The translations under genes were made by a program, and so were the position numbers. Below the pieces are notes generated by a model, which searched no databases, was not told the origin of the DNA, and saw only the letters and a program-made list of their open reading frames with translations. DNA of 64,000 nucleotides, taken from positions 11,124 to 75,123 of the forward strand of contig DDBW01000020.1 in assembly GCA_002335495.1 (NCBI GenBank), given 5' to 3'. The DNA is from Candidatus Dojkabacteria bacterium UBA2022. GTDB taxonomy: Bacteria; Patescibacteriota; Dojkabacteria; SC72. Shown piece after piece: positions 4,613 through 63,695 of the stretch (the stretch's first letter is position 1; each line of letters opens with the position of its first letter).

Positions 4613-4644
4613 TTATTTTAAGTTAATTTAAATATTCATAGTTT

Positions 4645-6144: not shown

Positions 6145-6168
6145 ATCTAATAGTGTGAAAATTATAAA

Positions 6169-9100
6169 ATGGCTGGAAAGAGGAAAGATAAATATGAAAA
6201 CGCTTTGCAGTCTATTTCTGACTTCATATTCAAAAATTCTGGTAAACGGGTAAAAGTTAAGCCCGGAAAAATTTCAGGGGCGTCTGGTACAGATCAGATG
6301 GCAAAAGCTCTTGCTGAAATTGCCTCCAAACCTGGGCTATACATAAGTGATTCATTGATGAAGTCAATTAATGAGACGATTGGTAGTCAGGCTTTGCTTC
6401 AATTTTATGTTGATCAACTGAACGAAGAAAAACATATAGGTGCTGATAAAAATGAAGGGCGTTTTAGAGTCCGAGGTTTTGAAACCGCTAATGTTATTGC
6501 TAACCCTAGGAAATACGTAAAGAGTATTTTCGACAAAGCTAAGGCAGAAAGAGAATGGGCAAGTAAAGTTGGAATGGCAGGCTACATTGACGGCGCAGCT
6601 GCCCTTTTATGGGCTAAAAAACAGGGCTTAAGTTGGCAGGAAGGAATGAAGATGTTTTCTGCTGCCAACTACGACTTACAGCCTATCCATAGGGAGGATG
6701 CTCATAAACTTATGGCTGAAACAGCTGGCTATCAAAGTTTCAAAGACCGTAAGAAAGCAGAGGAGGCTGGTAAGGACCTTTATTCAGCAATTAATAGCTC
6801 TGCTTTAACACGTGGGGGTAAAGTTAGTACTGCTAGTGGTGCTTTAGGCAATGACTTCATGCAGACTCTTTCTCCTTCGGAAAGAAAACTTCTAAAAGAT
6901 GGTATGGATGCTCTAAGTGCTGGGCAAAAACTCCCAGATGTTACGAGTAGATCTAAATTTGATGATTTACTTAAGCGACAGGCCCAGTTTGGAAAGCCTG
7001 GGGATAAATACTCAGGTCGTTATAATGCGATCCAAGGGCAACTAAAAAAACTTGAAGTCTCACCTGGTGTAAGGAAGTACACAGATTCTGAGGTAGACGC
7101 TATTTTAAAAAATTATGTTGAATCTCGGGATATCTCAAAGCTTGATCTTACGGGTGCTGAGTTCAAAAACTTAGATAAATATGCTGGTCTTAATCCTACA
7201 ACGTATAGAAGGCTCCTGATGAAAAATATTGATGCAAAGTTAAGGGTTATGGATCCTGTGAAAGACAAGGATGAAATGAAAGCTCTTACTACTTCAATGG
7301 GTGTTATAAGTTTGTGGCAAAGGGCATATGGAGGACCTGTCCCAGAGGATTATGCTGTTTTGATGGATAAAGTTAAATCAGAGATGGGTAATCCCTCTAC
7401 CTCTTCTGGACGAAAAGCTGAGCTTCAAAAAATACTCGACCAAATTAATAAAGAGAATAACGCCATTGGTGATAGAACAAATCGTCTTGGGGCATATACG
7501 GGTGTCTCAGATATACCTAAAATCGGAGCTCTTCGTAAAGATCTTGCCAATTATATAGGAATTGAGAAAGAGTTTTGGGAAGGTAAATTTAGAGAACTCT
7601 CGGATCTCCGTGCAAAAGGAACTATCACTCCAGATCAGGAACGTGAACTGGCTAAAGTAGGGCGAAGGCTTTCTTTGCTTTCTGTTGAACAAGATGGACT
7701 TAGAACACTACCCTGGGCGGGAGCGCGTATTACAGTAGGGCAGGTGTCAAATATGTTCAGAGCGTATAAGAATATATTTCAAGGTGGACCAGGTAGCATG
7801 CTTATGAACGGAATGTTCTGGGTTAGTGATGCGGCAGGTCCTTTTGCACCAGGAGCTATGGGTAAAATTAAGCTTATGTCACGTAAATTTGAAAATGGTC
7901 TTATTACTGAGGCCGTTATGCCTACTATGCGAGGAGATATTCACCCCTCATATGCGCAACTTACTGCTCTTTACTATCTCTCTCCCGCTAGTTTGCTTAA
8001 AACTTTTTTCTTTACAGGAGAAGGTTGGGCATATATGGGACATATTAAAGAAAGTGGAGCCAAAAATCTCCTAAATCATTATAAAAAAGATATTATCGGA
8101 GTTTTGGGAATTACGGAAGATGCTTTTAACGAATCGATGTCGAAGAATTACCTAAATATTGTAGATCAGCTTAAGGGAAGTACTAATCCTCTTATAAAGA
8201 AATTTATTGGTAGGGTCGAGTCCCTCTCTAATGCCGCTGAGAAACTTGCATCGAGGGTGGATTTTTATAATCGTTACCTTTACGGGCCTTATAGTAAGAT
8301 GGCATCAAATATAAACCAATGGATAATGTCGCGAGTAGGTCGTTTGTTGAAAGGTAGGATTCAAAGCGAGATGTGGAATAGTGCTGTTGATAAGTTTGTT
8401 GCCGGTGCAATCGGTCTTAAACAACTAATCTATTATGGAGTAGAAGCGGTTTTGCAGGCTGCTAATATCACCGTTAGTGGAGGAGCTTTGAGTATGTTGG
8501 TCGGATTTGTTTCTTACGTAGTTACTGAAGGCATTTATAAATTCGCACAGCCTATTCTTGAAGTTTTAGCAGGAATTTTCTCTATGTTTGGTATTTTACT
8601 CTTTGCCTTGATACTGTTTTTGGTAGGAGCCGCGAATGGAGCCTTCTCCAGGAAGTCAGATCCATATCGTGCATACTACCCTGGCTCTGCTATTGCCTGT
8701 ACTACCTACAACCCCCATGCAGGCATGTACCCACCTCCTCCTGATGACGTTCCTAGTACAGGATACCCACCATCTGATTCAAGCTGTCCATTTACCTTCA
8801 CTCCAGCTATCTGTACACAAGGAGATGGAGGAAACAGCTCTAGCTACCACCAACAAACAAAGGCAATTGACATTGGAACTAACTCTGTTCCCGTTAATGA
8901 AGATGTCTGGCACGCCCCAGCAGATGGAAAGATTACCAAATTCCAGGCTACCAACATATGTCAGGGAACTGGAAAGAACTATGGAGGATGGTTAGTCTTC
9001 CAAGATAACAGTGGAAATGTATATACACTATTACACGTAAAAGCCCTTGCCCCAGTTGGAGCTGTAAAGAAAGGAACTGCAGTCGCTATTACCCAAAGAG

Positions 9101-9231
9101 ACCTCACTCCAGACGGATGGTGTTGGACTGGACCTCACTTCCACCTCCATGTAACATCAAATGGAAGTTATGTTGATTCTGAAGACTGGTATAGAAATAA
9201 ATTGAAGTGCAGCTTCTCTGTATGTCCATAA
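6169..9231 (+). CDS. 1020-aa multidomain protein with a long helical N-region, a hydrophobic segment and a C-terminal M23 (LytM-type) metallopeptidase domain
   Basis: The C-terminal ~130 aa carry M23 hallmarks (HQQTKAIDIG ... GGWLVFQDNSGNVYTLLHV ... GPHFHLHV, i.e. the HxxxD and HxH motifs). Two or three TM helices lie around nt 8400-8640. There is no signal peptide. Confidence 0.65.
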   Translation: MAGKRKDKYENALQSISDFIFKNSGKRVKVKPGKISGASGTDQMAKALAEIASKPGLYISDSLMKSINETIGSQALLQFYVDQLNEEKHIGADKNEGRFRVRGFETANVIANPRKYVKSIFDKAKAEREWASKVGMAGYIDGAAALLWAKKQGLSWQEGMKMFSAANYDLQPIHREDAHKLMAETAGYQSFKDRKKAEEAGKDLYSAINSSALTRGGKVSTASGALGNDFMQTLSPSERKLLKDGMDALSAGQKLPDVTSRSKFDDLLKRQAQFGKPGDKYSGRYNAIQGQLKKLEVSPGVRKYTDSEVDAILKNYVESRDISKLDLTGAEFKNLDKYAGLNPTTYRRLLMKNIDAKLRVMDPVKDKDEMKALTTSMGVISLWQRAYGGPVPEDYAVLMDKVKSEMGNPSTSSGRKAELQKILDQINKENNAIGDRTNRLGAYTGVSDIPKIGALRKDLANYIGIEKEFWEGKFRELSDLRAKGTITPDQERELAKVGRRLSLLSVEQDGLRTLPWAGARITVGQVSNMFRAYKNIFQGGPGSMLMNGMFWVSDAAGPFAPGAMGKIKLMSRKFENGLITEAVMPTMRGDIHPSYAQLTALYYLSPASLLKTFFFTGEGWAYMGHIKESGAKNLLNHYKKDIIGVLGITEDAFNESMSKNYLNIVDQLKGSTNPLIKKFIGRVESLSNAAEKLASRVDFYNRYLYGPYSKMASNINQWIMSRVGRLLKGRIQSEMWNSAVDKFVAGAIGLKQLIYYGVEAVLQAANITVSGGALSMLVGFVSYVVTEGIYKFAQPILEVLAGIFSMFGILLFALILFLVGAANGAFSRKSDPYRAYYPGSAIACTTYNPHAGMYPPPPDDVPSTGYPPSDSSCPFTFTPAICTQGDGGNSSSYHQQTKAIDIGTNSVPVNEDVWHAPADGKITKFQATNICQGTGKNYGGWLVFQDNSGNVYTLLHVKALAPVGAVKKGTAVAITQRDLTPDGWCWTGPHFHLHVTSNGSYVDSEDWYRNKLKCSFSVCP

Positions 9232-10289
9232 CAATTGTTGACAACATAAAAAGCATTATAAAAGAGAGACCCATTGTTGCCGTTATGGCTATTGCGGTAG
9301 TGGTTCTACTCCTCGTTCTCATTTACAATCTTTTCTTTCAAAGAGAGGAAGAAGAAAAGCCTCAAAACGGAAAATACCTAATTGAAACCCCTATGCAGTA
9401 TGAGGGGAGTCATAGCGTTGTTATTCCAAAGCAAGTATATGAAGAGAAAACTTTTCCAGATCAGTTACCCATATTCCAGCTGGTAGATACGAACCATTCG
9501 TCAGATATTGATAGATTTCTAATTAAAATTGGGAAAACAGGTCTAACAAAGGATGTCGTAGGAGACTCTCTGTACTCTTGGATTGGAAGCGATAGTAAGT
9601 TGGAATACATCAAATTCCAGCAAAGTCTTTCATTTACCTTTAGCAACCCATTTACAATTTCTTTGCCTACTCAGTTCGTTGATGCTGATAGCGCTGAGAA
9701 ATTTTTCTCACAGTTTATTAAAGAGTACTTTGGTCTCGAATATGAATATACAAATGCCAAAATCTCAACTGAAGGACAAAGGATTGTTTTACAGGTTAAT
9801 AGAAAAGTTAATGATTACCCCATCTACCTTCAAAATCATTTCACCTATACCGATACTTTGACCGTAGACGCTGATGGAAATGTATACTCCGGATCTCTTA
9901 CCTTGTTCGATTATAATTCTGCTGAGAAAGAAGATATTAAACTTGTGAAGGTCCCAAACCTTTCTCAATTAATGTCTAATCCATCATATCCAAAAGATCT
10001 ATTTAAAGGATTTAGTGAAGATCTTCGAAAAATATTGAGCGAACCGGGGGTTGAACTTTTAGACGGAGCTGACCAGTTAATTGAACTTCCTGAACCTGTG
10101 TTTTCAGACGTGAAAAGCATTGAGCTTGTGTATTATTACTCAAGTGATGCATATAAACAACTTATTCCTATATACAGATTAGAAGCTGAAGGAGTTATTA
10201 CCTATTTAGGCAAGAATGCTAGGATTCCAATAGTAATTTACGCTAATGCCCTTGATCCAGATAGAGTTTATATAGAAAGTGGAGAGTAA
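9207..10289 (+). CDS. membrane-anchored hypothetical protein
   Basis: 360 codons. It has an N-terminal TM helix (IVAVMAIAVVVLLLVLIYNLFF) followed by a soluble domain. It overlaps the upstream stop by 25 nt, so the true start may be an internal Met. Confidence 0.45.
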   Translation: MQLLCMSITIVDNIKSIIKERPIVAVMAIAVVVLLLVLIYNLFFQREEEEKPQNGKYLIETPMQYEGSHSVVIPKQVYEEKTFPDQLPIFQLVDTNHSSDIDRFLIKIGKTGLTKDVVGDSLYSWIGSDSKLEYIKFQQSLSFTFSNPFTISLPTQFVDADSAEKFFSQFIKEYFGLEYEYTNAKISTEGQRIVLQVNRKVNDYPIYLQNHFTYTDTLTVDADGNVYSGSLTLFDYNSAEKEDIKLVKVPNLSQLMSNPSYPKDLFKGFSEDLRKILSEPGVELLDGADQLIELPEPVFSDVKSIELVYYYSSDAYKQLIPIYRLEAEGVITYLGKNARIPIVIYANALDPDRVYIESGE

Positions 10290-46513: not shown

Positions 46514-46786
46514 ATGTTAAAGCAACAAGTTGTTGATGCCGTTGCAGCTGCAGCTGGTCTCACAAAGAAGCAAGCAACTATGGCTGTAGATGCTATGCTT
46601 GACGCAGTCACTGATTCTTTAAAGAAGGGTGACTCTGTTCTTCTCACAGGCTTCGGTAAGTTCGAAGTTCGAACCAGAGCAGCAAGAGTAGGAATCAATC
46701 CTAAGACTTTGTCTAAGATTAATCTTCCTGCTTCTAAAGTTCCTGCTTTCAAAGCTGGAAAAGCTCTTAAGATGGCTGTTAAGTAA
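46514..46786 (+). CDS. hup: DNA-binding protein HU
   Basis: The HU/IHF fold signature (GFGKFEVRTRAARVGINPKT) is present. Confidence 0.9.
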   Translation: MLKQQVVDAVAAAAGLTKKQATMAVDAMLDAVTDSLKKGDSVLLTGFGKFEVRTRAARVGINPKTLSKINLPASKVPAFKAGKALKMAVK

Positions 46787-46823
46787 TAGCTGCCGGTATT
46801 TCTCTGTATAGAGAGGTATTACT

Positions 46824-46878
46824 GGGGCCCTGATTCTTATAGATAGAATATATCTGTAAGATTGCAGGGCCCCTTTTT
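46824..46878 (+). terminator. rho-independent terminator after hup
   Basis: A GGGGCCC...GGGCCCC stem with an inner CTTATAG/CTGTAAG pairing is followed by TTTTT. Confidence 0.6.
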
Positions 46879-46907: not shown

Positions 46908-46936
46908 TTGACAGCAAGAACTGTGTATGTAATTAT
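46908..46936 (+). promoter_or_regulatory. sigma70-type promoter (TTGACA-17-AATTAT) upstream of the GNAT-like gene and the peptide locus
   Basis: A consensus -35 TTGACA is at 46908-46913. A plausible AT-rich -10 lies 17 nt downstream. Confidence 0.4.
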
Positions 46937-46964
46937 TATAATAAATATTTAGCCTGAATAATCA

Positions 46965-47411
46965 ATGAAAGTTATTAAAGGTGAAGTTAAGCATACTGAA
47001 GATATTTCAAACCTTCTCGCTGATCATTTTTCCCGACTAAACTCAAGATTCGGTTATAACAAGTATAAGACGAATCTATCTAGAATGACTGAAATTGTGC
47101 ATGAAAGGCTGTCTGACGATAAGAATTTATACAAGTATATTGTTCTAGAGTCCGACGATGGTACATTTGCAGGGTTTATAAACCTTCTCTTTGCAAAAGA
47201 TATCTCGGAGATTCTTCTCCTTGAATTGCTTCCTGAGTTTAATAATTATGATAATGCTAAAATTTTGTTGGAAACTGCTCTTGGTGAATTCAAAAGACTA
47301 GGGGTTAAAAGGATTATTACTGAAATATCGCCGGAAGAGCCTAATTATAAAAAGGCATTTGAGGAACTTAATAGTGAAGTCTTACTCTGGACTGCAGCAT
47401 ATAATTTATAA
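46965..47411 (+). CDS. small GNAT-fold-like protein (degenerate), first gene of the putative RiPP locus
   Basis: 148 codons. The C-terminal RLGVKRIITEI...NYKKAFEELN resembles the GNAT motif A/B region. A clear acetyl-CoA Gly loop is lacking. Confidence 0.35.
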   Translation: MKVIKGEVKHTEDISNLLADHFSRLNSRFGYNKYKTNLSRMTEIVHERLSDDKNLYKYIVLESDDGTFAGFINLLFAKDISEILLLELLPEFNNYDNAKILLETALGEFKRLGVKRIITEISPEEPNYKKAFEELNSEVLLWTAAYNL

Positions 47412-47422
47412 ATTTTTCTAAT

Positions 47423-47551
47423 ATGGTGTATGAGTCAGCTATTATTGCGCTAGGCTTTGATGAGTTTTTATTAGATGTACTTCCAGAGCTAGCTCACATG
47501 GGGGGAACTGGTGAAACTTCACAATGCTGTGCATCAGGTACTAAGGACTGA
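47423..47551 (+). CDS. candidate RiPP precursor peptide (42 aa: leader ending in Gly-Gly, then a Thr/Ser/Cys-rich 14-aa core)
   Basis: It was translated manually as MVYESAIIALGFDEFLLDVLPELAHMGG-TGETSQCCASGTKD. It is missing from the ORF track. Its stop TGA overlaps the downstream start as TGATG. Confidence 0.55.
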   Translation: MVYESAIIALGFDEFLLDVLPELAHMGGTGETSQCCASGTKD

Positions 47552-48900
47552 TGTTACTGAGATCGTCTATTAATTATGAGAGACATCTTAAGGATAAGCT
47601 TTTAGAGCTTTCTGCTTATGTAAATGTAGATAGCTCTTGTAAAATAGATCCTTCTTTTTTAAGAGAATATTATTATAAATTCTATGCTCAAACACTAGTT
47701 TATAATTTTTATGTTGAGAAACAGGATAACTTCGTTGAGTATGTCGATTCGCTTTCAAAAGAGTATCTTCATAGTTTTAAGGTCCCAACCTCTTTTGTAT
47801 CAGCCGTTTTGAGCCAAGTTTTCGATGATGCCAAAAAATTAAATTTGCAGAATGAAGTTGTGCCTTTGGGTGATGTTCATTATAAAGGAGGTACAAAGTA
47901 TCTGAATAATAAGAAAATATCTTTTCATAATTATCCTAACTATGACACTCTTGTGAGAACGATTGCAGATATCGTAAATGTAATCCCTGTATCCTGTCTT
48001 CCCCTGCAGAACAATGAATCCGGCGCTTTAAGTAGGGAATTTATAGACGTAAACAATGTTACAGATGACGAAAAGAAAGTCGAAGAATATTTTTATAACT
48101 TAGGAGTTGTTATACCATTTCTGCTGTTACTTAGAGCCATTGATGTATACGCCGAAAATATTCTTGTAAATTTACCCTATCCGGTATTATTTGATCTTGA
48201 ATGTATCTTTACAGGAGTTCATGAAAAGGATCCTAATTATTCTTTATTCCATACTGGTATTATAAAGGTACCGGAAAACAACGATGTTAGCGCTCTGACT
48301 GGTGGTATGGAGCAGATCTATAGCTATTTGCATCCATCATTGCATAATGAAAATGGATTACCAAAAATAAAGTGGAAGATCAAATCTGATCTTAAAGCTG
48401 ACAATCTTGTTCTGTTACGAGGAAACTATGTAGACGTTACAAAATATATAGATATTTTACTAAAAGGTTTTGATTGTTCTTCTAATCAAATTTCTAAGAG
48501 GATGGCTGATGTCCGAAAAGCTGTTTTAGAGATTCCCACATATATTCGCTATATTCATCGTCCTACATATATTTATAGCTCTCGTATTCAACACTACCTA
48601 TTCCCGAATGTATATGAGACCCAAGACTCTATTAAATTTATGCGTGAAGGTTTGCAGTCTCATTCACCTATGTTTGCAGTTACCGAAAGCGAAGGTATTC
48701 TTAATTACGAGTCAGAAAGTATGTCCAAGGGCATGGTCCCCGTATTTTATAATGAGATCCACTCTAATGATGTTTTTAATTCGAATGGAGATCTAATTAC
48801 GAAGAATAAAGTTAAACCTGTAGATGTATGGCTCTCTCATATTACTAATATTGAGGAATTTTTTTATAAACAAAGGAAAATCCTCCGCGATTCTATCTAG
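47551..48900 (+). CDS. 449-aa protein with a kinase-like (APH/protein-kinase-like) catalytic core, a candidate peptide-modifying enzyme
   Basis: The catalytic-loop-like IDVYAENILVN (D-x4-N followed by NILV) is present. The metal-binding-like FDLECIF (DxE) is present. The Gly-rich GDVHYKGGTKY is present. It is translationally coupled to the peptide ORF. Confidence 0.5.
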   Translation: MLLRSSINYERHLKDKLLELSAYVNVDSSCKIDPSFLREYYYKFYAQTLVYNFYVEKQDNFVEYVDSLSKEYLHSFKVPTSFVSAVLSQVFDDAKKLNLQNEVVPLGDVHYKGGTKYLNNKKISFHNYPNYDTLVRTIADIVNVIPVSCLPLQNNESGALSREFIDVNNVTDDEKKVEEYFYNLGVVIPFLLLLRAIDVYAENILVNLPYPVLFDLECIFTGVHEKDPNYSLFHTGIIKVPENNDVSALTGGMEQIYSYLHPSLHNENGLPKIKWKIKSDLKADNLVLLRGNYVDVTKYIDILLKGFDCSSNQISKRMADVRKAVLEIPTYIRYIHRPTYIYSSRIQHYLFPNVYETQDSIKFMREGLQSHSPMFAVTESEGILNYESESMSKGMVPVFYNEIHSNDVFNSNGDLITKNKVKPVDVWLSHITNIEEFFYKQRKILRDSI

Positions 48901-48914: not shown

Positions 48915-49979
48915 CTAATTTTCTTTTCCGTAATAGTTAGCAGCAATATATGTCGTTATTGGTATTGCAATGATTAACCCTATGCTTCCTACCAATGTCC
49001 TTACTACCTCCTCCGTTATCACCTCTAGGTTTACAAGCTGGCCGAGTGGGTACTGGGAATTAGTGAAAAGAATCAGCAGTGGAAGAGATGATCCTGCATA
49101 TACCAAAACTAAGGTGTTAACCATTGATGAAATATGATCCTTCCCAACCTCCATAGCTCGCTTGTATAAGTCAAATGCTTTCATTTTTCTGTTAGTTTCG
49201 TTTAACTGTTGAACTATAGAAACTTGAGAAATTGTTGCATCATCAAGAATGCCGCTCAAACTGATAATTACCCCTGCTATATAGATACTCTTTAAATCAA
49301 AGCTTCCCCCATTGAAAAATTGTAGGAATATCGTGTCGTCATCAGTTAAACCTGTGATATTTGTTAGGTTTACAAATATTCTGGTTAGAAGCGAAGTTAC
49401 AATTATCGCTGCCAATACGCCTATAATTGCAATGTGGGCTTTCTTGGTAAAGCCGTGGGATATATAGAAAATGGTCGGAATTAGAATTAAGGATGTAATC
49501 GTTGTTACGAATATTGCATCTCGCCCGTCAATTATCATTGGCAGGGTCACCTGCGAGATTATGATGAAAGAGATTACCATAGAAATCACCGCCCTGAACC
49601 CATGTTTACCAGCCACAATAACTGTTACGAGAATAAATAAACCAAAGAGGAGGAGTAGGGCGTCGGATCTGTAGTAGTCAGTTATGTAAAAGGTCTCTCC
49701 TCCGTCTAAATCTTTCGCCTCTGTTAAAAGCACCTTATCACCCTTTTTATATTCGATGGTTGTTTCTCCTGTAAGGAGTTGTTGATTTATTACAACCTCA
49801 TCTCCCTTTCTTTCCCCGTCCAAAATAACTACTTTAGCTTTAAAGTCGATAACCCCAGGATTAGTTTCACTACGACTAGCCTCAGTAATTTCTCCCTTAT
49901 AAAGCTGGGAATCTCCATTTGCCAATACCCCCGTAGACATAGAAAGAAATAACATTAGTGCAATTACTATCTTTTTCAT
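48915..49979 (-). CDS. YibE/F-family-like integral membrane protein with an N-terminal extracytoplasmic domain
   Basis: It has a signal peptide, a ~100-aa soluble region, then ~7 TM helices. This resembles the YibE/F architecture. Confidence 0.45.
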   Translation of the reverse strand: MKKIVIALMLFLSMSTGVLANGDSQLYKGEITEASRSETNPGVIDFKAKVVILDGERKGDEVVINQQLLTGETTIEYKKGDKVLLTEAKDLDGGETFYITDYYRSDALLLLFGLFILVTVIVAGKHGFRAVISMVISFIIISQVTLPMIIDGRDAIFVTTITSLILIPTIFYISHGFTKKAHIAIIGVLAAIIVTSLLTRIFVNLTNITGLTDDDTIFLQFFNGGSFDLKSIYIAGVIISLSGILDDATISQVSIVQQLNETNRKMKAFDLYKRAMEVGKDHISSMVNTLVLVYAGSSLPLLILFTNSQYPLGQLVNLEVITEEVVRTLVGSIGLIIAIPITTYIAANYYGKEN

Positions 49980-50087: not shown

Positions 50088-51440
50088 TTGCGTAACTGGT
50101 TTATACCGAACAAAAGGAACAGCTTTAAGCCTTACCTGCTTAGAAATACAGCTCTGTCTGTTTATACATTCATCCTTTTTACCGTAAATATTTTAGGAGG
50201 TTTTCTAGGAATCCCTGAAGTTTCAGCAAGTTCAATTGCTAAGGACAATATCATTCGACTAACCAATGCAGAAAGACAGAAATTTGGATTAAATGCACTA
50301 AAAGAGAACTCTAGACTGAGTTCCGCAGCTTTAGCCAAGGCAAATAATATGATTGAAGAACAGTATTGGGATCACTTTGGTCCCAATGGAGAGACTCCCT
50401 GGCAGTTTATAAAAGCATCAGGATATCAGTACATTTATGCAGGTGAGAACCTTGCGAAAGGCTTTAAAAGTTCCGAAGGGGTTGTACAGGCATGGATGGC
50501 AAGCCCAACTCACAGAGAAAATATTTTGAGCGGTAATTATAAAGAGATTGGTATTGCAACTGTTACCGGTGAACTTCTTGGAGAGAATATTATTTTGGTA
50601 GTTCAGATGTTTGGAAACACTACTTCCGAGGTGACACCTTCTGCTCCTCCAACCACGCCGGTTGTTCCAGAACCTAGTGAAAACGGAGATATAAAGAGTA
50701 TTAAAATTACATATCCTGCTGAGGGTTCCGTCGTTACCGACCCTTCTGCCGATATTAAAGGTGAAGTTTTCAACGTTGAAGGGGAATATAAAGTCGAGGT
50801 TTACGATAAAAATAAAGTGGTAGGTAATCTCTCCACCAACGGATCTTTATGGGATTTTAGAAAAGATGCAGATTGGAGTGAAGGGTCACATAACATCACA
50901 GCAACTCTTGTGGATAGTGAAAATAAAGTTGAGGATAGTGTTACCTTTGAGGTTGATAGCACACCTCCACAGATTGATGAGTTCGATATTGCAGTTGAGG
51001 CCAAAGAACCAGGATGGGTAGTTACGATTAATGTAGAAGAGGATTCTCCTGATGTTACAGTCGTTGTTGGATCCAAAACCTATCCATCATCCTTTGTAGA
51101 CAACCTATATAAAGTTGAAATTGAAGAATTGAATTCAGGAGCTAAGGTGGTGATTGTTGCGAGTGATAAACATGGTAATACTTTGGAATATGAAATTACT
51201 GATCTATTTGAAGTTGATGATGGGCAGGTTTTAGGCGGATTTCTCAATAATATAGACATAAAGGATACTGTTAATACAGTTTTTGTTATCTTCATATTTA
51301 TCCTTCTACTTATTGAAATCGTTGTGTATGCTAGAAAGGGTCTCATAAAGGAAAAAAGATCTAGTTTGTTTTCAATTTCAATGTGGTGGCTTTTGATGCT
51401 AATAGGTACTTTAAATGGATTTGAAGGAGTTATCATATAG
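50088..51440 (+). CDS. secreted CAP/SCP (PR-1-like, YkwD-type) domain protein with Ig-like repeats and a C-terminal TM anchor
   Basis: The CAP domain (LTNAERQKFGLNAL ... HFGPNGE ... GENLAKGF ... WMASPTHRENIL) is present. Beta-rich repeats and a terminal hydrophobic helix follow. Confidence 0.65.
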   Translation: MRNWFIPNKRNSFKPYLLRNTALSVYTFILFTVNILGGFLGIPEVSASSIAKDNIIRLTNAERQKFGLNALKENSRLSSAALAKANNMIEEQYWDHFGPNGETPWQFIKASGYQYIYAGENLAKGFKSSEGVVQAWMASPTHRENILSGNYKEIGIATVTGELLGENIILVVQMFGNTTSEVTPSAPPTTPVVPEPSENGDIKSIKITYPAEGSVVTDPSADIKGEVFNVEGEYKVEVYDKNKVVGNLSTNGSLWDFRKDADWSEGSHNITATLVDSENKVEDSVTFEVDSTPPQIDEFDIAVEAKEPGWVVTINVEEDSPDVTVVVGSKTYPSSFVDNLYKVEIEELNSGAKVVIVASDKHGNTLEYEITDLFEVDDGQVLGGFLNNIDIKDTVNTVFVIFIFILLLIEIVVYARKGLIKEKRSSLFSISMWWLLMLIGTLNGFEGVII

Positions 51441-52968: not shown

Positions 52969-53427
52969 TTATATTTTCTTGACGGTATATTGAATTTTCC
53001 CTCTTGGGGTTGTAATTTCAACCTTGTTACCAAGCTTCTTGCCTATAAGGGCGTGCCCTAGAGGTGAGTCACTTGAGATAATATTGTGGATTGGATTGCT
53101 TTCACCAACTCCACCAATTTTAAAGGTAGTTTCTTTACCTGTTTCGTCTTCAACAGTTACGCTATCACCAATCTCAACGACATCCTTTTTTACAGCTTTT
53201 ACTATTTTTGCGTTTGCAATCATATCTTTGATCTTAGCAATCTCCTGCTCGTTAGATTTGTAATCTTCAACTGCAAGAGTATATCCGTCGTTTTCTCTCA
53301 GGTCTCCCTGTGCGCGCATTTCTTCTAAAATCTGTTTAATTTCGTCTTTTTTAGGTCCTTCTCTATATAGGAGTTCTTCCTTTAATTTGTCGAGTCCCTC
53401 TTTTGTTACTAAATATTCGTTTTTCAT
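52969..53427 (-). CDS. greA: transcription elongation factor GreA
   Basis: The N-terminal coiled-coil carries the acidic tip (RENDGY). The C-terminal FKBP-like domain is present. The ORF is 152 aa. Confidence 0.85.
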   Translation of the reverse strand: MKNEYLVTKEGLDKLKEELLYREGPKKDEIKQILEEMRAQGDLRENDGYTLAVEDYKSNEQEIAKIKDMIANAKIVKAVKKDVVEIGDSVTVEDETGKETTFKIGGVGESNPIHNIISSDSPLGHALIGKKLGNKVEITTPRGKIQYTVKKI

Positions 53428-53640: not shown

Positions 53641-55401
53641 ATGAAAAAGTTTCTATCTTTGTACTTAAGGACTGTAAAAATAGCCTGGCGTAAGAAGTGG
53701 CATTATATAGCCGGAGTAACCTTTGGCATTTTGCTTGTAGCCTTTTCTAACTACGCAGTTTTCAAGATTAAAGATATTGTAAATGCGATTGAAAGTGGTG
53801 GAGACATTGTTCGCCCTCTGGTAGAAATGGCTATTATCCTAATTGTTCCAATCATTGTCCAACCAATATCGTACTTCTATAAATCATACGTATATTCAAT
53901 TGTAACTGGGGATATTATTAACTCTTTGTATAAGAAAGTAATGTCTTTGGATTATGCCTACCATACTAATAAGGAAACGGGGCGGGTAGTATCTTTAATT
54001 ATGAATTCCCACGAAGTTCCAATGCTTTTTCTCTGGAATTTAGAGATATTTGCCTTTGAACAGATTGCCTCAATAGCAATCCCACTTATTCTTTTAGGAA
54101 CTATCTCCCCCGAATTAGCTTTGTACACAGGCCTTTTTATTCTTGTTCTTCTACCTCTCTACGGTAAGCTTGTGAAGTTTGGTGTTAAGGAAAGAAATAA
54201 ACTGAAAGAGGTAGAATATAAAAGAAACAGTGCAATTATCGATGGAGTTACTAACTATGAAACAGTGAGAATCTTTGCCAGGAAGAAGGATGAAATGCAC
54301 TACCTCAGCGGGTTAGTTGATGAAAATGTTAAGGCTATTGATCGATATCAAACCTCTTTTAGAATTTTAGATTTTGCTTCTCATATAGGAGGTCTTGCTA
54401 TTTTTGGAATAGGAGCCGGTTTTATTTATATTAACCGGTTAACACTTTCAATCGGTGAGATAGTAGTTATTGTTACTTATATGCTTCAGCTCTCTCGTAA
54501 AATTCTTGACGTTGTTTTTAGTAGTAGGACTATTCTTAAGAACTTGCCTCTCGTAGAGGATATCTATTCTCTTATGGACCGTAAATCTACAATTAACGAG
54601 CCAAAACGTCCTAAAAAGATTGAAAAACCTAGAGGGAAAGTGAAGTTTGATCATGTAACATTCTCATATAACAAAGGTAAGGGTAATGGGGTACTGCATG
54701 ATGTGAGCTTTAACATCAATGCAGGTGAAACCGTTGCATTTGTTGGCCCATCTGGAGGAGGAAAGTCTACCATTGCGAGGTTAATCCTTAGGTACTTTGA
54801 TGTAAATAAGGGTAAAGTTTTGATAGATGGAGTTAATGTTAAAGCTCTGGGTACAGAGAATGTAAACTCCATAATCGGGGTAGTTCCTCAGGAGCCTGTT
54901 CTGTTCAATCGAAGTTTGAAATACAACATTGGTTACGGTTTCTCAGCTGATGAGGATGAACTTGATAAATATATGGATCAAATTGTTGATGCCGCTAAAA
55001 AAGCTCAAATATACGACTTTATACTCTCACTTCCAGATGGATTTGATACTGTAGTAGGTGAGAGAGGTCTAAAACTCAGCGGTGGGCAAAAACAAAGAGT
55101 TGCAATTGCTAGGGTTATTATCAAGAATCCAAAGATTATTATCTTTGATGAAGCTACAAGTATGTTGGATAGTGAGAGTGAAGAAGCAATCCAAAAGGCT
55201 TTCCATGAGTTGAGTCGCCATGCTACTACTGTTGTTATCGCTCACAGATTAAGCACTATAAAAAATGCTGATAGAATATTTGTGGTTGATGGAGGTAATA
55301 TTGTTGAATCAGGCAACCATAAACAACTTGTTCAAAACGGTAACTTGTATGCCAAGCTTTGGAGAATGCAGAGTGAAGGGTTTATTAAAACTGATAATTA
55401 A
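53641..55401 (+). CDS. ABC exporter, fused permease and ATPase (MsbA/lipid A-type family)
   Basis: It has 6 TM helices. Walker A GPSGGGKST, signature LSGGQKQRVAIARV and Walker B IIIFDEATS are present. Confidence 0.85.
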   Translation: MKKFLSLYLRTVKIAWRKKWHYIAGVTFGILLVAFSNYAVFKIKDIVNAIESGGDIVRPLVEMAIILIVPIIVQPISYFYKSYVYSIVTGDIINSLYKKVMSLDYAYHTNKETGRVVSLIMNSHEVPMLFLWNLEIFAFEQIASIAIPLILLGTISPELALYTGLFILVLLPLYGKLVKFGVKERNKLKEVEYKRNSAIIDGVTNYETVRIFARKKDEMHYLSGLVDENVKAIDRYQTSFRILDFASHIGGLAIFGIGAGFIYINRLTLSIGEIVVIVTYMLQLSRKILDVVFSSRTILKNLPLVEDIYSLMDRKSTINEPKRPKKIEKPRGKVKFDHVTFSYNKGKGNGVLHDVSFNINAGETVAFVGPSGGGKSTIARLILRYFDVNKGKVLIDGVNVKALGTENVNSIIGVVPQEPVLFNRSLKYNIGYGFSADEDELDKYMDQIVDAAKKAQIYDFILSLPDGFDTVVGERGLKLSGGQKQRVAIARVIIKNPKIIIFDEATSMLDSESEEAIQKAFHELSRHATTVVIAHRLSTIKNADRIFVVDGGNIVESGNHKQLVQNGNLYAKLWRMQSEGFIKTDN

Positions 55402-56198: not shown

Positions 56199-56666
56199 AT
56201 GATATTTGGCAAGAAATATAAGATAACGTCGCAGAAGAAAGCTGAGTTAGAAAAAGAACTCCATAAGCTTGAAACTTCCGGACGTGATGAGATTGCTGAT
56301 CGTTTAGATTTCATTCGACAACAGCCCGCGGATGAAGATGATTACCCATTTGTTGATGTCCTTGATGATAAGGAATATTTAGAGAAAAGAATCCTTGAGA
56401 TAAAGGATATACTTTCTAACTCTCAAATCATTGAAGACGAGAGTAAACATGATAAGGTTGAGGTCGGATCAAAGGTTAAGGTCGGATTTGAAGGTTTTGA
56501 GGATGAGTATTTGATTGTATCTTCAGTTGAGGCAGATCCACTTTCCAAAAAGATCTCTGATGAGTCTCCTGTTGGACAGGCCTTGGTTGGAGCAAAAGTG
56601 GGTGATACCGTTGATGTACAGATTGGTCACGTTCAGAAAAAGTTTAGAGTTTTAAAAATCACTTAA
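56199..56666 (+). CDS. second Gre-family factor (GreA/GreB paralog)
   Basis: 155 aa. The N-terminus is coiled-coil-like with an acidic region (PADEDDYPFVD). The C-terminus is a Gre FKBP-like domain (PLSKKISDESPVGQALVGAKVGDTVDV). Confidence 0.6.
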   Translation: MIFGKKYKITSQKKAELEKELHKLETSGRDEIADRLDFIRQQPADEDDYPFVDVLDDKEYLEKRILEIKDILSNSQIIEDESKHDKVEVGSKVKVGFEGFEDEYLIVSSVEADPLSKKISDESPVGQALVGAKVGDTVDVQIGHVQKKFRVLKIT

Positions 56667-59852: not shown

Positions 59853-60377
59853 ATGGAGAAGAAAAGTAAAAAGAGTGAGGGTAAGAAAGAGACTAAAAAG
59901 GCTGCCTATGTTGCCCCAAAAAGATTGGTAAGATCAAAGACCGATCAAATCATCGCCGGTGTATGTGGTGGAATTGCAGAATATTTTGAGATTGATCCGA
60001 TAATTGTGCGATTGCTCTTTGCACTGCTAGTCTTCTCTGGAGGATCCGGAGTTCTTATATACATAATTCTTTGGATAATTATGCCTGAGAAAGGAGACGA
60101 AAATAAAAGCCATAATCAAGTTGTGAAAGAAAATGCAAAGGATTTTGAACAGAAGGTCGAACAGTGGGCTGATAGCATGGATAAACCTGATAACAGAAAG
60201 AAGACTCAGCTATGGTTTGGAGTTGCTATTGTTGTATTGGGAACCTACCTTACCCTGCAAAACTTTGGTATCGGTAGTATGTTTAACCTTGGCTGGTATA
60301 TTGGTAAATTTTGGCCATTAATAATTGTTGGACTAGGAGTAATAATTTTAGTCAAAAGAGATAATGGAAATAAATAA
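59853..60377 (+). CDS. PspC-domain membrane protein
   Basis: The PspC signature (DQIIAGVCGGIAEYFEIDPIIVRLLFALLVFSGG) is followed by TM helices. Confidence 0.7.
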   Translation: MEKKSKKSEGKKETKKAAYVAPKRLVRSKTDQIIAGVCGGIAEYFEIDPIIVRLLFALLVFSGGSGVLIYIILWIIMPEKGDENKSHNQVVKENAKDFEQKVEQWADSMDKPDNRKKTQLWFGVAIVVLGTYLTLQNFGIGSMFNLGWYIGKFWPLIIVGLGVIILVKRDNGNK

Positions 60378-61365
60378 TAAAGTTGTAGAAAGAATCTCTC
60401 TTGCCATTACCCTTATATTTGTAGGCTCTCTCTTTCTTCTGGGTAATCTAGGATATATCACTTTCAAGTCTGTAATACAGTTCTTCCTTGATTTCTGGCC
60501 ACTATTTATCGTGTTGGCAGGAGTAAAGCTGATAATTGGTGCCTTTAAGTATGGTGGGGTTATAAACTTGCTTATTGACCTTGTTGTAAATGTAATAATT
60601 GTTCTGTCTCTCCTTGCTTTAACTTCTGGTTCAATGGACTCATATCGTGCAAAAGATGCTTGGTGGAAAAACTATATGGAAAAAGTGAAAATAGTTAATA
60701 TCGACGAATCGTATAACGTAACCGAGCAAGAGTATCCCCGATCTGACATTAGCAGTATTAAGTATTATTTTGATATAGGCTTTGGAGACTTCTCTGTTAA
60801 ACAAACTACAGGAAAGGACTATCTTGAGATAAGTGGGACATACCCTGAAAAGTTGGTTGTACCTGAGATGACCACTGGATTGAATGATGGTCTTTTAGAT
60901 ATCCGTTTCTCGCAGACTAGTGAATCGAAGAAACTGTTCGCGCCATGGTACTGGGGCGATGCTAGTACTGTACTAGGTTTAAGTCAGACTAATCTACCTA
61001 TTAAATTTGTATTAAAAGTAGGGGCGGGAGATGGAGATGTTGATCTAAGAGGTATGGACCTTACAAAAGCATCTGTTGATCTAGGTGCAGGCAACATCGA
61101 CGTTAAGATGGATTCAATTCCCAAAGAAGGGCTTAAATTAAACGTAGGGGCTGGAGATTTAAGTCTCTATCTGCCTAAAGAAGCTAAGTTCACAATGAAA
61201 TATGGTGTAGGAGCTGGTAATCTTGGATATAGTGAAAAGGGAGGTGAGTCAAAAAGTTTTGGTGGATTGGGTTCAAACGGTAGTTTAAATAGAGGAACTG
61301 GAGATGTGTTACCTGTACTTGAAATATCTGTTGGGGCGGGAAATGTTGATCTGTATTTTGAGTAG
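60364..61365 (+). CDS. membrane protein with DUF4097/LiaG-like putative-adhesin beta-helix repeats
   Basis: It has N-terminal TM helices. A repetitive VGAGD/LGAGN/VGAGN beta-solenoid-like C-terminal region follows. It is adjacent to the PspC-domain gene, as in cell-envelope stress modules. Confidence 0.5.
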   Translation: MEINNKVVERISLAITLIFVGSLFLLGNLGYITFKSVIQFFLDFWPLFIVLAGVKLIIGAFKYGGVINLLIDLVVNVIIVLSLLALTSGSMDSYRAKDAWWKNYMEKVKIVNIDESYNVTEQEYPRSDISSIKYYFDIGFGDFSVKQTTGKDYLEISGTYPEKLVVPEMTTGLNDGLLDIRFSQTSESKKLFAPWYWGDASTVLGLSQTNLPIKFVLKVGAGDGDVDLRGMDLTKASVDLGAGNIDVKMDSIPKEGLKLNVGAGDLSLYLPKEAKFTMKYGVGAGNLGYSEKGGESKSFGGLGSNGSLNRGTGDVLPVLEISVGAGNVDLYFE

Positions 61366-61667: not shown

Positions 61668-63695
61668 ATGACAAACGATCAGAGAAGCGATTTGATTGGC
61701 CAAAGAAACGTAAGGTTGGAGAAAATTGAGAGAATGAAAGCTATGGGAATTGATCCATATCCTTCAAACTCATTAAGAAACGTATCCAACTCCGAGGTTA
61801 TTCAAAACTACAGTAAACATGAAGGACAGGTTGTTACAGTAGCCGGTCGATTAATGTCTATAAGAGAACACGGTCAGATAGTATTCGGACATATTCAAGA
61901 TCCTACAGATAGACTTCAGTTATATATCAAAGCTGATTCATTAGCATCTACAAGTAAAGAGAGCATCGGATTTGAAAATATGGACCTATTTGATATTGGA
62001 GATATTGTAGAAGCTACTGGAATTGTCACAAAGACTCAAAGAGGAGAAGTCTCTGTTCAGCCAACCACTTTGCGCATGCTTACCAAATCCATCCGTCCAC
62101 TTCCTGATAAATGGGCTGGTTTGCAAGATAAAGAAGCGAAATTTAGACAAAGATATCTAGATTTGATAATGGATCCTTCCAAGAAAAATAAATTTGTAGA
62201 CTCGGCCAGAATCCTTTTTGCAATAAGATCATTTTTAAATGAAAGAGGATTTCTTGAAATTAAAACACCTGTTATACAACCCCTTTATGGAGGAACAAAC
62301 GCACGTCCTTTTAGCACATACATGAATGCCTTAGGCACCGATTTCTATCTCGCAATTGCTCACGAATTGTATCTTAAAAGATTGATAACCGCGGGATTTG
62401 AAAACGTTTACAACATGACTGGATATTTCAGAAACGAAGGGATCGATAGGACTCACAATCCTGAGTTTCAGATGCTTGAAACTATGACCGCATATAAAAA
62501 TTACGAGTACAACATGGAGCTTCTTGAGAGCATGTATAAACATGTAGCAAAGAATGTAATGCAAAAAAATGTGTATAAAGTTGGAGGGCATGAAATAGAC
62601 CTAATGGGTAACTGGGAAAGAATAATGATGGTAGATGCTGTCCGAAAACATACGGGAGTAGATTTTAATAAGATTAGCAATCTAAAGGATGCACACCAAG
62701 CGTTGACGAGCATAGGATATAAAGGTGAGATGCCTGATTCTATTGGGGAATCTATGAAGGTAGTCTTTGAAGAAAAAGTAGAAGAGAAACTCATACAACC
62801 TACAATTATCTACGGACACCCTGTAGAGATATCTCCACTTGCAAAAAGAATGACATCTGATCCTAGATATGTTGAAAGATTTGAAATATTTATAGGCGGA
62901 ATTGAACAAGGAGATAACTGGAGTGAGTTAAATAACCCTGTTGAGCTTTTTGATAGATTTAAAGCACAGAGCTTGGCTAAAAAGATTGATGAGGACGATG
63001 TAGCTCATCCAATGGATATTGAATTTATTGAAACCATGGAGTACGGAATGCCTCCTACTACTGGCTTAGGGCCTGGTATTGAAAGATTCCAAATGCTATT
63101 TACTGAATCTGAGTATATTGATGATGTTATATTCTTCCCATTGATGAGACCAGCTCCTGTAACCAAACTTCAGAAAGAAATATACGGAGAAGACGCCTTG
63201 GAAGGAAATGAGAAATTGATAGGTCGAAACAGTAAGGGGGAAGTTAAAGCAAAAGCTTCGGGACCTAAGGTTCAGGATACATCTAAGAAAATAGTTTTGC
63301 TCCTAAACTCGGAGCTTTCTGGTTGGAAGGTTACAAACACGGTTGGACATCTATCCGCTCTTGTCGCTAACATGATCGATAGGGAGAGTTTTGCAAGTAC
63401 TGATTCATTTGAGTTTTCAGATGGTGTCCGAATTCCTGCTAACTCTCAGTATCCAATAGTGGCTTTGGGAGCAACCGATGCTCAGTTAAAGAACTTCTTT
63501 GCTAAAACCAAGGATATGAAAGACATTATTCTCACCGTTTACACTAAGGAAATGCTTGAAATAAAGTCAGATAATGAGATCACAGATGCGTTGCAAAAAA
63601 TAACAATCAATGATTCTGAAATATACGGAATTGGGTTGTTCGGTGATAATGATACTCTGAAGAGCTTAACAAACAAATTTAGTCTGTATAAATAG
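61668..63695 (+). CDS. lysS: lysyl-tRNA synthetase (class II) with a ~180-aa C-terminal PTH2/DUF2000-like extension
   Basis: The N-terminal OB anticodon-binding domain and class II motifs 1-3 are present through ...FFPLMRP at residue 495. An extra domain covers residues 496-675. Confidence 0.9.
   Translation: MTNDQRSDLIGQRNVRLEKIERMKAMGIDPYPSNSLRNVSNSEVIQNYSKHEGQVVTVAGRLMSIREHGQIVFGHIQDPTDRLQLYIKADSLASTSKESIGFENMDLFDIGDIVEATGIVTKTQRGEVSVQPTTLRMLTKSIRPLPDKWAGLQDKEAKFRQRYLDLIMDPSKKNKFVDSARILFAIRSFLNERGFLEIKTPVIQPLYGGTNARPFSTYMNALGTDFYLAIAHELYLKRLITAGFENVYNMTGYFRNEGIDRTHNPEFQMLETMTAYKNYEYNMELLESMYKHVAKNVMQKNVYKVGGHEIDLMGNWERIMMVDAVRKHTGVDFNKISNLKDAHQALTSIGYKGEMPDSIGESMKVVFEEKVEEKLIQPTIIYGHPVEISPLAKRMTSDPRYVERFEIFIGGIEQGDNWSELNNPVELFDRFKAQSLAKKIDEDDVAHPMDIEFIETMEYGMPPTTGLGPGIERFQMLFTESEYIDDVIFFPLMRPAPVTKLQKEIYGEDALEGNEKLIGRNSKGEVKAKASGPKVQDTSKKIVLLLNSELSGWKVTNTVGHLSALVANMIDRESFASTDSFEFSDGVRIPANSQYPIVALGATDAQLKNFFAKTKDMKDIILTVYTKEMLEIKSDNEITDALQKITINDSEIYGIGLFGDNDTLKSLTNKFSLYK

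Follow-up and report, generated by a model that had tools for sequence, protein, structure and literature searches.

A three-gene cassette in the 64-kb stretch of Dojkabacteria DNA analyzed here (hereafter, the window) looks like an undescribed, stripped-down route to a modified peptide. It encodes a GNAT-fold protein, a 42-amino acid (aa) precursor-like peptide, and a 449-aa protein that, by sequence and predicted fold, is a stand-alone, cyclase-less member of the LanM-type (DUF4135) dehydratase family. Judging from the comparative evidence below, we consider it fairly probable that the cassette is a self-contained, Patescibacteria-specific RiPP system in which leader-guided, ATP-dependent dehydration of the peptide would be followed by thioether formation at an invariant Cys, without LanC. 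The original prediction of a lanthipeptide-like RiPP locus at this site is supported computationally, and none of the refuting outcomes that could be looked for in silico was observed.

The cassette follows the gene for HU (Pfam Bac_DNA_binding, 3.3e-31) and is bounded on its 5′ side, as had been proposed, by the intrinsic hup terminator on the forward strand (46795–46878), which consists of hairpins at 46795–46820 and 46824–46873 followed by a U-tract. The terminator scan gave no excess over shuffled sequences and, through a loop-size limit, missed this terminator, which was then confirmed by folding (minimum free energy of −43.9 kcal/mol, z = −6.2, with 0 of 200 shuffled sequences folding as well); a terminator 3′ of the DUF4135 gene was looked for and none was found. 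The consensus TTGACA promoter claimed for the locus exists as a site, TTGACA-17 nt-(TG)AATTAT at 46908–46936 of the forward strand, 29 nt ahead of the cassette's first gene, with 10 of 12 matches and the extended TG, but lacks statistical support: 11 promoter-like sites were found in the AT-rich region vs 11.3 expected from shuffled sequences, so that it is only a candidate. Downstream, and all on the forward strand, lie the genes for the GNAT-fold protein (148 aa, 46965–47411), the putative precursor (42 codons and a stop, 47423–47551), and the DUF4135 enzyme (449 aa, 47551–48900). The TGA of the peptide shares its A (47551) with the ATG of the enzyme, so that the TGATG overlap from which translational coupling had been suggested is present in the sequence, and the convergent gene expected on the 3′ side proved to encode a YibE/F membrane protein (48915–49979).

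Profile and structure comparisons bear out the kinase-like, LanM-related nature that the original prediction had assigned to the 449-aa protein from its motifs. The protein matches Pfam DUF4135 (PF13575) over residues 163–400 (8e-23; 81.7 bits vs a gathering score of 29), which places it in the LanM dehydratase family and not in an unrelated one. A profile of the enzyme family matches CylM (2.4e-21) and LicM2 (2.3e-15), and a Foldseek search with the AF2 model, in which confidence is low at residues 196–262 including the catalytic loop, yielded CylM (9e-11) and LicM2 (7e-9) as the top and sole significant PDB matches. The full-length LanM model TIGR03897 was matched only at positions 209–518 of 932 (87.9 bits vs a cutoff of 304), the LANC_like Pfam domain had no match in the 449-aa protein, and the protein stops about where the dehydratase/cyclase boundary of CylM falls. 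Excised LanM dehydratase domains are reported to suffice for dehydration (PMC10676384). Short DUF4135 proteins form a clade of their own, apart from the LanMs, that comprises about 70 clusters at 50% identity.

Mutagenesis of CylM covers both the elimination and the phosphotransfer residues and their roles (PMC4550811), and the window enzyme keeps all four of the former and three of the five of the latter. The elimination residues D252, H254, R506, and T512 of CylM correspond to D108, H110, R333, and T339 of the window enzyme and are found in 63, 62, 62, and 56 of the 63 short homologues, respectively, with Ser in the remaining sequences at the last position. The two motifs on which the original prediction relied, IDVYAENILVN and FDLECIF, are present and, in the profile alignment, fall on the CylM catalytic loop (D347–N352) and the Mg ligand D364; the equivalent phosphotransfer residues D198 and N203 (catalytic loop, nucleotides 48142–48159) and D215 are kept, for each of the three, in 62–63 of the 63 short homologues. 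The two others differ: K274 of CylM is replaced by H126 (Lys in only 20/63 short homologues), and H349 by Y200 (Asn in 34/63). K274A and H349A were the only CylM mutants of the phosphotransfer set with some remaining activity (PMC4550811). Given that both of these residues are LanM-invariant, activity of the window enzyme would depend on a putative compensation. Its P-loop, LGDVH..TK, carries D108 and H110 along with K116, a clade-specific position that is Lys or Arg in 61 of the 63 short homologues and Val in LanMs.

The peptide open reading frame (ORF) begins and ends where it had been predicted (ATG at 47423, TGA at 47549–47551) and encodes MVYESAIIALGFDEFLLDVLPELAHMGGTGETSQCCASGTKD. It had been described as unannotated, which does not hold, since a database entry from a Candidatus Dojkabacteria MAG, HRI05901.1 ("hypothetical protein"), has exactly the same 42 residues. 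An acidic and hydrophobic putative leader (M1–G28, 47423–47506) precedes a short putative core rich in Thr, Ser, and Cys (T29–D42, TGETSQCCASGTKD, 47507–47548). The leader motif of the family, G-[F/L]-[D/E]-E-[L/F]..[I/V]-E-x-E-L, takes the form GFDEFLLDVLPEL in the window, and its acidic E-L-x-x-x-E-L-like helix is one that we take to resemble class II leaders. The leader-core organization proposed for the peptide stands across the family (32–48 aa, with cores of 11–14 residues), whereas the double-glycine at the junction is not a general feature, being present in only 3 of 20 peptides (those of the window and of loci L018 and L009).

Core positions kept across the family are [T/S] at −4, Cys at 0, and then Ala, [T/S], Gly, and Thr; the conserved hydroxy residues are mostly Thr. 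Most members have a second pair, T(+2) and C(+5), in the arrangement T-x-x-C. In the subfamily of the window, +5 is occupied by Lys or Arg, a Cys-Cys pair is present instead, and the main family's C-terminal Cys is missing, so that a single predicted ring topology would not fit all members. Six-frame translation of the window and all fetched loci (305 kb) places C-A-[S/T]-G-T at the expected site 5′ of each DUF4135 gene and nowhere else, a signal that is well beyond chance.

The pairing of peptide and enzyme is conserved, as the original prediction required: a gene for a GNAT-fold protein of ~145 aa, a peptide of 32–48 aa at the same position, and a DUF4135 protein of ~450 aa recur together in 20 distinct loci with unrelated flanks, and in an all-against-all BLAST comparison of the flanking ORFs only the three cassette genes were common to the loci. 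A scan of metagenomes added three loci, two of them duplicates, and every locus with a named genome belongs to Patescibacteria. The movement of the three genes as a unit among unrelated contexts argues that the cassette is self-sufficient. In three loci (L022, L023, and L030), the DUF4135 gene is deleted and the start codon of the peptide is gone; in L022 and L030, the peptide is additionally frameshifted, with the invariant Thr and Gly mutated, and the GNAT gene of this lineage is still intact. An anti-phage defense function was also considered and rejected, a PADLOC search having produced no match for either cassette protein.

The claim that a small GNAT-like gene lies upstream holds for fold and position: the family profile of the 148-aa protein matches RimI (9mto, 6.7e-8), its 49 homologues are without exception short (142–148 aa for nearly all), and of the 19 intact cassettes for which upstream DNA is available, all 19 carry one. 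The canonical acetyltransferase motifs are lacking. The CoA pyrophosphate loop Q/RxxGxG/A at β4-α3 is absent from the family, which has no Gly motif there and is three residues shorter than RimI at this place; the motif-B Tyr is absent as well, with Leu aligned to the Tyr of "FYKKAG"; and conservation clusters in α1-α2, on the acceptor side, not in the cofactor half. These features count against an active acetyltransferase that would N-acetylate the mature peptide, a modification that occurs in some lanthipeptides, or would act as a self-immunity enzyme. We judge this reading to be somewhat unlikely; in its favor are weak Pfam Acetyltransf_1 matches for 16 of the 36 family members examined (18.7 bits for the window protein, under the cutoff of 20.7) and an acidic strand-β5 residue (E120) in 15 of 15 sequences. 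The intact gene in the DUF4135-less lineage might be taken as a further sign of independent function but says little, because that lineage is very recent (the loci differ by dS of 0.01–0.02). Most likely, the GNAT-fold protein would be a non-acetylating accessory that binds the precursor or takes part in a cyclization or immunity step.

That no LanC-like cyclase, C39 peptidase, or dedicated transporter is adjacent was part of the original prediction and is true of the entire window. Searches for partners covered the 64-kb window and flanks of 3–8 kb at the other loci: a Hidden Markov Model built from 46 LanM cyclase domains had no match in the window or at any locus (flanks totaling about 240 kb, from about 20 genomes); no RiPP enzyme turned up among the remaining window ORFs in Pfam scans that took in about 35 ORFs; neither Peptidase_C39 nor a conserved transporter was found in the window or any flank; and YcaO was found neither in the window nor among conserved neighbors. 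The sole ABC exporter in the window (53641–55401) is devoid of an N-terminal peptidase domain, and its link to the cassette is not conserved, with tblastn giving only ATPase-domain similarity in two lineages. The minimal, cyclase-less architecture, which had been pointed out as unusual, recurs across loci and is not an accident of the window genome.

In the mechanism that we propose, the 42-aa product, with its acidic hydrophobic leader and short Thr/Ser/Cys core, would be the precursor, bound by the enzyme that is co-translated with it. The enzyme would phosphorylate Thr and Ser residues of the core with ATP/Mg via D198, N203, and D215, Lys116 of the P-loop probably standing in for Lys274 of LanMs, and D108, H110, R333, and T339 would then eliminate the phosphate to yield dehydrobutyrine (Dhb) or dehydroalanine (Dha). 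The invariant Cys would most likely attack the dehydro residue at −4 and so close a (methyl)lanthionine ring, and in most family members T(+2) and C(+5) could be joined in another. Without LanC, the thioether step might be aided by the GNAT-fold partner or by the dehydratase itself, or be spontaneous. Leader removal and export would be performed by functions unlinked to the cassette. Non-enzymatic addition of thiols to Dhb is reported to be very slow, at least intermolecularly (PMC9934072), and as the conserved Thr residues would give rise to Dhb, ring formation without catalysis is questionable.

The product might instead be a linear dehydropeptide or a phosphopeptide in which the Cys is free, in a disulfide, or metal-bound, and no thioether ring forms. 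This would agree with the failure to find a cyclase in the window or the other loci, with the replacement of K274 and H349, which could change the chemistry, and with the precedent of CcaM, the DUF4135 enzyme of the dehydrazole clusters, which gives dehydro residues without lanthionines (PMC10676384). It is nevertheless an unlikely outcome, given that a free thiol beside Dha or Dhb in an 11–14-mer would be expected to react intramolecularly, and that the conservation of the elimination residues speaks against a phosphopeptide as the end product. The core sequences also oppose it: an invariant Cys always follows an invariant Thr/Ser at i+4, and most members have a T-x-x-C as well, which is classic lanthionine spacing.

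Another reading retains the thioether rings and has them closed in trans, by a LanC-type cyclase whose gene lies at another genomic location; the cassette would then belong to a canonical class II system in split form, in which the short DUF4135 protein only dehydrates. The slowness of uncatalyzed addition to Dhb and the confinement of the cyclase search to the window and flanks leave room for it, and in class I systems dehydratase and cyclase are indeed separate proteins. However, the lack of a LanC-like domain in the window and the flanks of about 20 genomes, the transfer of the cassette between unrelated contexts as a three-gene unit, and the gene-poor nature of patescibacterial genomes of about 1 Mb make such a trans-acting cyclase decidedly improbable.

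Finally, a non-coding reading of the small ORF, in which its conservation would stem from regulation or from an overlapping frame where the DUF4135 gene begins, is hardly credible and, on codon usage and substitution patterns, effectively refuted: the DUF4135 start as called at most loci (GVQQEPVHK...) does run, in a different frame, across the final 20–45 nt of the peptide ORF, but the whole ORF, leader included, is under purifying selection (dN/dS of 0.07–0.30, with dS of about 1–2, near saturation; 0.15–0.25 for the window peptide vs those of L018 and L009), its invariant residues vary synonymously (the terminal Ser is TCA, AGT, or TCT), and the ORF decays once the DUF4135 gene is lost. The overlapping-frame artifact (VQQEPVHK) is further ruled out by two loci in which the core is conserved with no overlap, the window, where a stop in the reading frame of the enzyme at 47542–47544, just 5′ of its ATG, means that core conservation is not a by-product of that frame, and L018, where 64 nt separate the peptide ORF from the DUF4135 gene. 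By these sequence criteria, the 42-codon ORF is a real gene.

No published description of the short DUF4135 clade or of the cassette was found in the full-text literature, a scope that excludes most subscription journals. One genome-mining survey began from LanC-like proteins. The network of the dehydrazole study left out proteins shorter than 500 aa (PMC10676384), so that the short clade would be missed by both. If active, the enzyme would be the smallest known LanM-type functional unit, at about 450 aa, and would imply that the kinase/lyase core works without a cyclase domain, about 140 N-terminal residues, and the canonical Lys and His. A further point of interest is the chemistry of thioether closure in the absence of LanC, and the GNAT-fold protein was perhaps recruited for that step or for leader recognition. 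Patescibacteria are thought to have very little specialized metabolism; the cassette would provide them with a conserved, mobile modified-peptide system, which bears on how episymbionts interact with hosts and competitors. The small enzyme and its 11–14-residue substrate would be attractive for peptide engineering. Taken to its full extent, our interpretation is tentative and, in this specific form, rather doubtful: a minimal LanM with the catalytic Lys moved into the P-loop and a GNAT-fold pseudo-enzyme, acting as a new precursor-binding or cyclization protein, would make a LanC-free (methyl)lanthionine peptide of 11–14 residues, the first Patescibacteria-specific RiPP class, and the product might be an envelope-targeting compound with nisin ring A/B-like structure used between episymbiont and host.

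Among known systems, the cassette is closest to the LanMs (CylM, LicM2, LctM, HalM2, and ProcM), with which it shares the DUF4135 dehydratase family and fold, the P-loop D-x-H, the D...N of the catalytic loop, the Mg-binding Asp, the R...T elimination residues, and a Ser/Thr/Cys-rich leader-core peptide encoded directly upstream. It differs in that the enzyme is about 450 rather than 900–1100 aa long, has no C-terminal LanC-like Zn cyclase domain, is about 140 residues shorter at the N-terminus (D252 of CylM is D108), and has a new conserved P-loop Lys where LanMs have Val, with K274 and H349 not conserved, and in that a dedicated GNAT-fold partner is present and a LanT/C39 transporter is not. 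In class I (LanB and LanC) and class V (LxmK/LxmX/LxmY) systems, dehydration and cyclization reside on separate small proteins, with dehydration by members of unrelated families, either a glutamyl-tRNA-dependent LanB or an APH-like kinase together with a HopA1-like lyase, and an identifiable cyclase accompanies them; the cassette has a LanM-type dehydratase and no recognizable cyclase. Unlike GNAT N-acetyltransferases (RimI, 9mto), the GNAT-fold family lacks the CoA loop and the motif-B Tyr and is confined to the cassette. LanMbC/CcaM is likewise a divergent DUF4135 dehydratase outside the classical LanM context that forms dehydroamino acids without Zn-dependent cyclization, but CcaM is about 1000 aa long, fused to a class III-type cyclase domain needed for activity, leader-independent, and active only beside YcaO-made azoles (PMC10676384). 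The dehydrazole (LanMbC-YcaO) clusters thus combine a fused cyclase with a YcaO/dehydrogenase neighbor, neither of which accompanies the single-domain, 449-aa cassette enzyme. With respect to the product, the cassette's putative rings, predicted from sequence, are separated by one more residue than rings A and B of nisin, the core has only 11–14 residues, and the second Cys is missing from its position in the subfamily of the window. In nisin, rings A (i, i+4) and B (i, i+3) bind the pyrophosphate of lipid II, and most cores of the family, in which T-x-x-x-C is closely followed by T-x-x-C, would presumably form rings of these same sizes.

The locus consists of three co-oriented ORFs on the forward strand, 3′ of the terminator of the HU gene (46514-46786). 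This intrinsic terminator is strong and has two hairpins (46795-46878; -43.9 kcal/mol, z = -6.2). It is followed by a 148-aa GNAT-fold ORF (46965-47411), a 42-codon peptide ORF that starts 11 nt past it (47423-47551), and a 449-aa ORF containing DUF4135 (47551-48900), whose ATG shares one base with the peptide stop as TGATG. A convergent YibE/F membrane-protein gene begins 14 nt beyond the stop of the 449-aa ORF. The original prediction had described this overlap and a locus delimited by the hup terminator on the 5′ side and a convergent gene on the 3′ side, and both features are present. The promoter it proposed also exists as a candidate site (TTGACA-17-AATTAT at 46908), but is not statistically distinguishable in AT-rich DNA.

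The 449-aa protein is a predicted LanM-type dehydratase without a cyclase domain. It scores 81.7 bits against Pfam DUF4135 (gathering score 29) and matches only positions 209-518 of the 932 in TIGR03897, the full-length LanM model, far under the cutoff. A profile built from eight family members matches CylM (5dzt, 2.4e-21) and LicM2 (6st5, 2.3e-15), covering CylM residues 211-590 approximately, and these two structures are also the only significant PDB matches of an AF2 model of the protein (pLDDT 72.5, pTM 0.77, with residues 196-262 at low confidence), in agreement with the LanM-like kinase relationship proposed from motifs. In the profile alignment, the CylM elimination tetrad D252/H254/R506/T512 corresponds to D108/H110/R333/T339 and the phosphotransfer residues D347/N352/D364 to D198/N203/D215 (roles in CylM: PMC4550811); H349 is replaced by Tyr200 and K274 by His126 (47926-47928). 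The protein ends at about the dehydratase/cyclase boundary of CylM, and its N-terminus is shorter by ~140 residues.

An exhaustive HMM search across 1.84 billion representatives yielded 71 clusters at E < 1e-30, nearly all of 420-480 aa, with the classical LanMs of 900-1100 aa beginning only at about 1e-29. By neighbour joining, 62 of the 64 short proteins, the window's among them, form one pure clade. The four elimination residues and D347/N352/D364 are each retained in 56-63 of 63 short sequences; the K274 position is Lys in just 20 of the 63, and the H349 position is mainly Asn (34), with His in 15 and Tyr in 5. Position 116, in the P-loop close to CylM V260, is Lys or Arg in 61/63 short sequences and Val in 43/48 LanMs (T115-K116 of the window enzyme is encoded at 47893-47898). 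We infer that Lys116 may be a relocated ATP-activating lysine, by a logic comparable to the lysine relocation of WNK kinases; the catalytic-loop region of the AF2 model is of low confidence. In CylM, H349A and K274A are the sole phosphotransfer mutants that keep some dehydration (PMC4550811). A second set of about 22 DUF4135 proteins shorter than LanM (P0084-P0155, 480-660 aa) retains K274 and H349, as is canonical, and clusters with LanMs; its members may be LanMs cut short at contig ends, or else dehydratases of other taxa that stand alone independently.

Context look-ups together with genome and metagenome scans gave 20 distinct cassettes, intact or contig-truncated (the window, L001, L002, L004-L009, L011-L018, L020, L024 and L026); the named source genomes all belong to Saccharibacteria, Dojkabacteria or other Patescibacteria. 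Judged by shared gene content, the three genes make up the whole cassette: all-against-all BLAST of flank ORFs found two protein families in common, DUF4135 and a ~145-aa GNAT-fold protein, the latter in 19/19 intact cassettes having upstream DNA, the flanks being otherwise unrelated. As originally noted, no LanC-like cyclase or C39 peptidase is adjacent: an HMM of the LanM cyclase domain (46 sequences; strong positive controls) had no match in the window or any locus, and a Pfam scan of the other window ORFs (housekeeping genes) found no LANC_like, C39, S8, radical-SAM or YcaO domain. A PADLOC search for anti-phage defence gave no match. A 586-aa ABC exporter (ABC_membrane + ABC_tran; 53641-55401, forward strand), 4.7 kb downstream, carries no C39 peptidase domain, and its linkage to the cassette is inconsistent across loci. 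ABC ATPase genes also occur near the cassette in two loci, immediately 5′ of it in L013 and ~3 kb 5′ of it in L026, and not in other loci.

Among other window genes, one located two genes downstream of the cassette (50088-51440, +) encodes a CAP/SCP-domain protein that also has bacterial Ig-like domains and, C-terminally, a membrane anchor. In the product of another, ~11 kb from the cassette (60364-61365, +), a LiaI/LiaF-like transmembrane region is combined with a DUF4097 'toastrack' domain; this family is tied elsewhere to cell-envelope stress sensing. Two GreA/GreB-family paralogues 3 kb apart (52969-53427, -; 56199-56666, +) flank the ABC exporter and trmD, and the order AA_kinase-GreA-TrmD-GreA-tRNA synthetase recurs in L024 and L025, with the cassette at another position there. 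A class II aminoacyl-tRNA synthetase (tRNA-synt_2 and OB anticodon domain) with a C-terminal DUF2000 domain is located at 61668-63695 (+). Four successive large ORFs of 485, 499, 1020 and 360 aa (3155-10289, +), lacking Pfam matches at 1e-5, are preceded by a gene for an fn3/purple-acid-phosphatase-N-domain protein (1473-3116).

The GNAT fold of the upstream protein, already suspected in the original prediction, is substantiated by a family profile match to RimI (6.7e-8). An active acetyltransferase is a rather unlikely alternative, given that, relative to RimI, the β4-α3 Q/RxxGxG/A CoA-pyrophosphate loop is absent through a three-residue deletion and the motif-B Tyr position is Leu. Conservation is concentrated in α1-α2 (FGYPKYK..Y.LM.KHVSKRI), not in the cofactor half, the 49 database homologues are all short (nearly all 142-148 aa), and every context examined for the family is this cassette. 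On these grounds, a putative non-acetylating accessory role is favoured. Such an accessory could bind the precursor and so stand in for the N-terminal region of LanM that the enzyme lacks; alternatively, it could serve cyclisation or immunity.

The 42-codon ORF is a real, conserved gene for a putative precursor peptide. A database entry from a Candidatus Dojkabacteria MAG, the 'hypothetical protein' HRI05901.1, has exactly the sequence of its product, and this match also places the window in the Patescibacteria (CPR). The proposed peptide-enzyme pairing extends to relatives, with an ORF of 32-48 codons directly upstream of the DUF4135 gene in all 20 cassettes. The peptides have in common the leader motif G-[F/L]-[D/E]-E-[L/F]..[I/V]-E-x-E-L. 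In the core, numbered from the invariant Cys (0), [T/S](-4) is invariant and [T/S](-3) nearly so, position -1 varies (C, D, A or G), and A(+1), [T/S](+2), G(+3) and T(+4) are invariant, followed by C(+5)-[S/D/N] throughout, save in the window, L018 and L009. These three form a GG subfamily, ...LPEL..[I/M]GG[T/S]GE(S)TS[Q/T]CCASGT[K/R](D), so that the double-glycine leader end originally described holds for the window peptide but is confined to this subfamily. Purifying selection is evident from a pairwise dN/dS of 0.07-0.30 (dS about 0.8-2) and from synonymous codons at invariant residues (Ser TCA/AGT/TCT; Gly GGT/GGA/GGC; Ala GCA/GCT; Thr ACN), and C-A-[S/T]-G-T is absent from the rest of the 305 kb (window and fetched loci) translated in six frames. 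The DUF4135 ORF as called begins, at most loci, inside the peptide ORF and in another frame (G/VQQEPVHK...), which gives 20-45 nt of dual coding (for example L002:3440-3462, L001:6001-6023 and L026:6515-6555). This frame is excluded as the source of core conservation by the window, where the overlap is 1 nt and a stop interrupts the DUF4135 frame at 47542-47544, and by L018, where a 64-nt spacer separates the two genes; the conserved core is thus a property of the peptide frame.

One lineage provides a natural knock-out. In L022 (106-900), L023 (43-1250) and L030 (6001-6640), homology to the intact sister L026 (6001-7909) extends exactly as far as the peptide ORF does, and a GT2 glycosyltransferase cluster stands in place of DUF4135. 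In all three, the peptide ORF lacks its ATG and has Ile instead of T(+2); L022 and L030 also have a frameshift, and L023 and L030 have Asp instead of G(+3). This decay fits dependence of peptide function on the DUF4135 enzyme. The GNAT-fold gene is intact in all three; because the event is recent (dS 0.01-0.02), its retention says little of its function. Upstream in L030 are an integrase fragment and the T4SS-like genes TraG, TraC and PrgI.

The cassette is well supported as a genetic unit: the analysis establishes family membership and fold of the enzyme, conservation of its catalytic residues, synteny, selection, and the local absence of a cyclase. Its chemistry is predicted: ATP-dependent phosphorylation and then elimination would occur at core Thr/Ser. 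Dehydratase domains excised from LanM reportedly suffice for dehydration (PMC10676384). A (Me)Lan ring would join position -4 to Cys(0), with a second from +2 to +5 in most members. With these spacings, the rings would be the size of rings A and B in nisin. The window subfamily has a Cys-Cys pair and no C(+5), and its topology must therefore differ from that of the main family. The main difficulty is ring closure, because the conserved hydroxy residues are mostly Thr, and in intermolecular reactions thiols reportedly add to Dhb very slowly without catalysis (PMC9934072). Intramolecular proximity might suffice, a cassette protein might help, a cyclase might act in trans, or the product might keep Dhb and free Cys.

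A full-text literature search, with subscription journals mostly outside its scope, returned no description of the cassette. It would escape two published surveys, because one began from LanC-like proteins and the other left out DUF4135 proteins < 500 aa (PMC10676384). The expectation of an unusually minimal or non-canonical system is borne out by a three-gene unit with no local cyclase, whose enzyme, compared with LanM by the defining tests, has no cyclase domain, falls under the full-length model cutoff and has two invariant residues replaced. The cassette is neither a dehydrazole LanMbC system nor one of the class I or class V split systems; its likeness is to class II lanthipeptide systems, at the predicted dehydration step.
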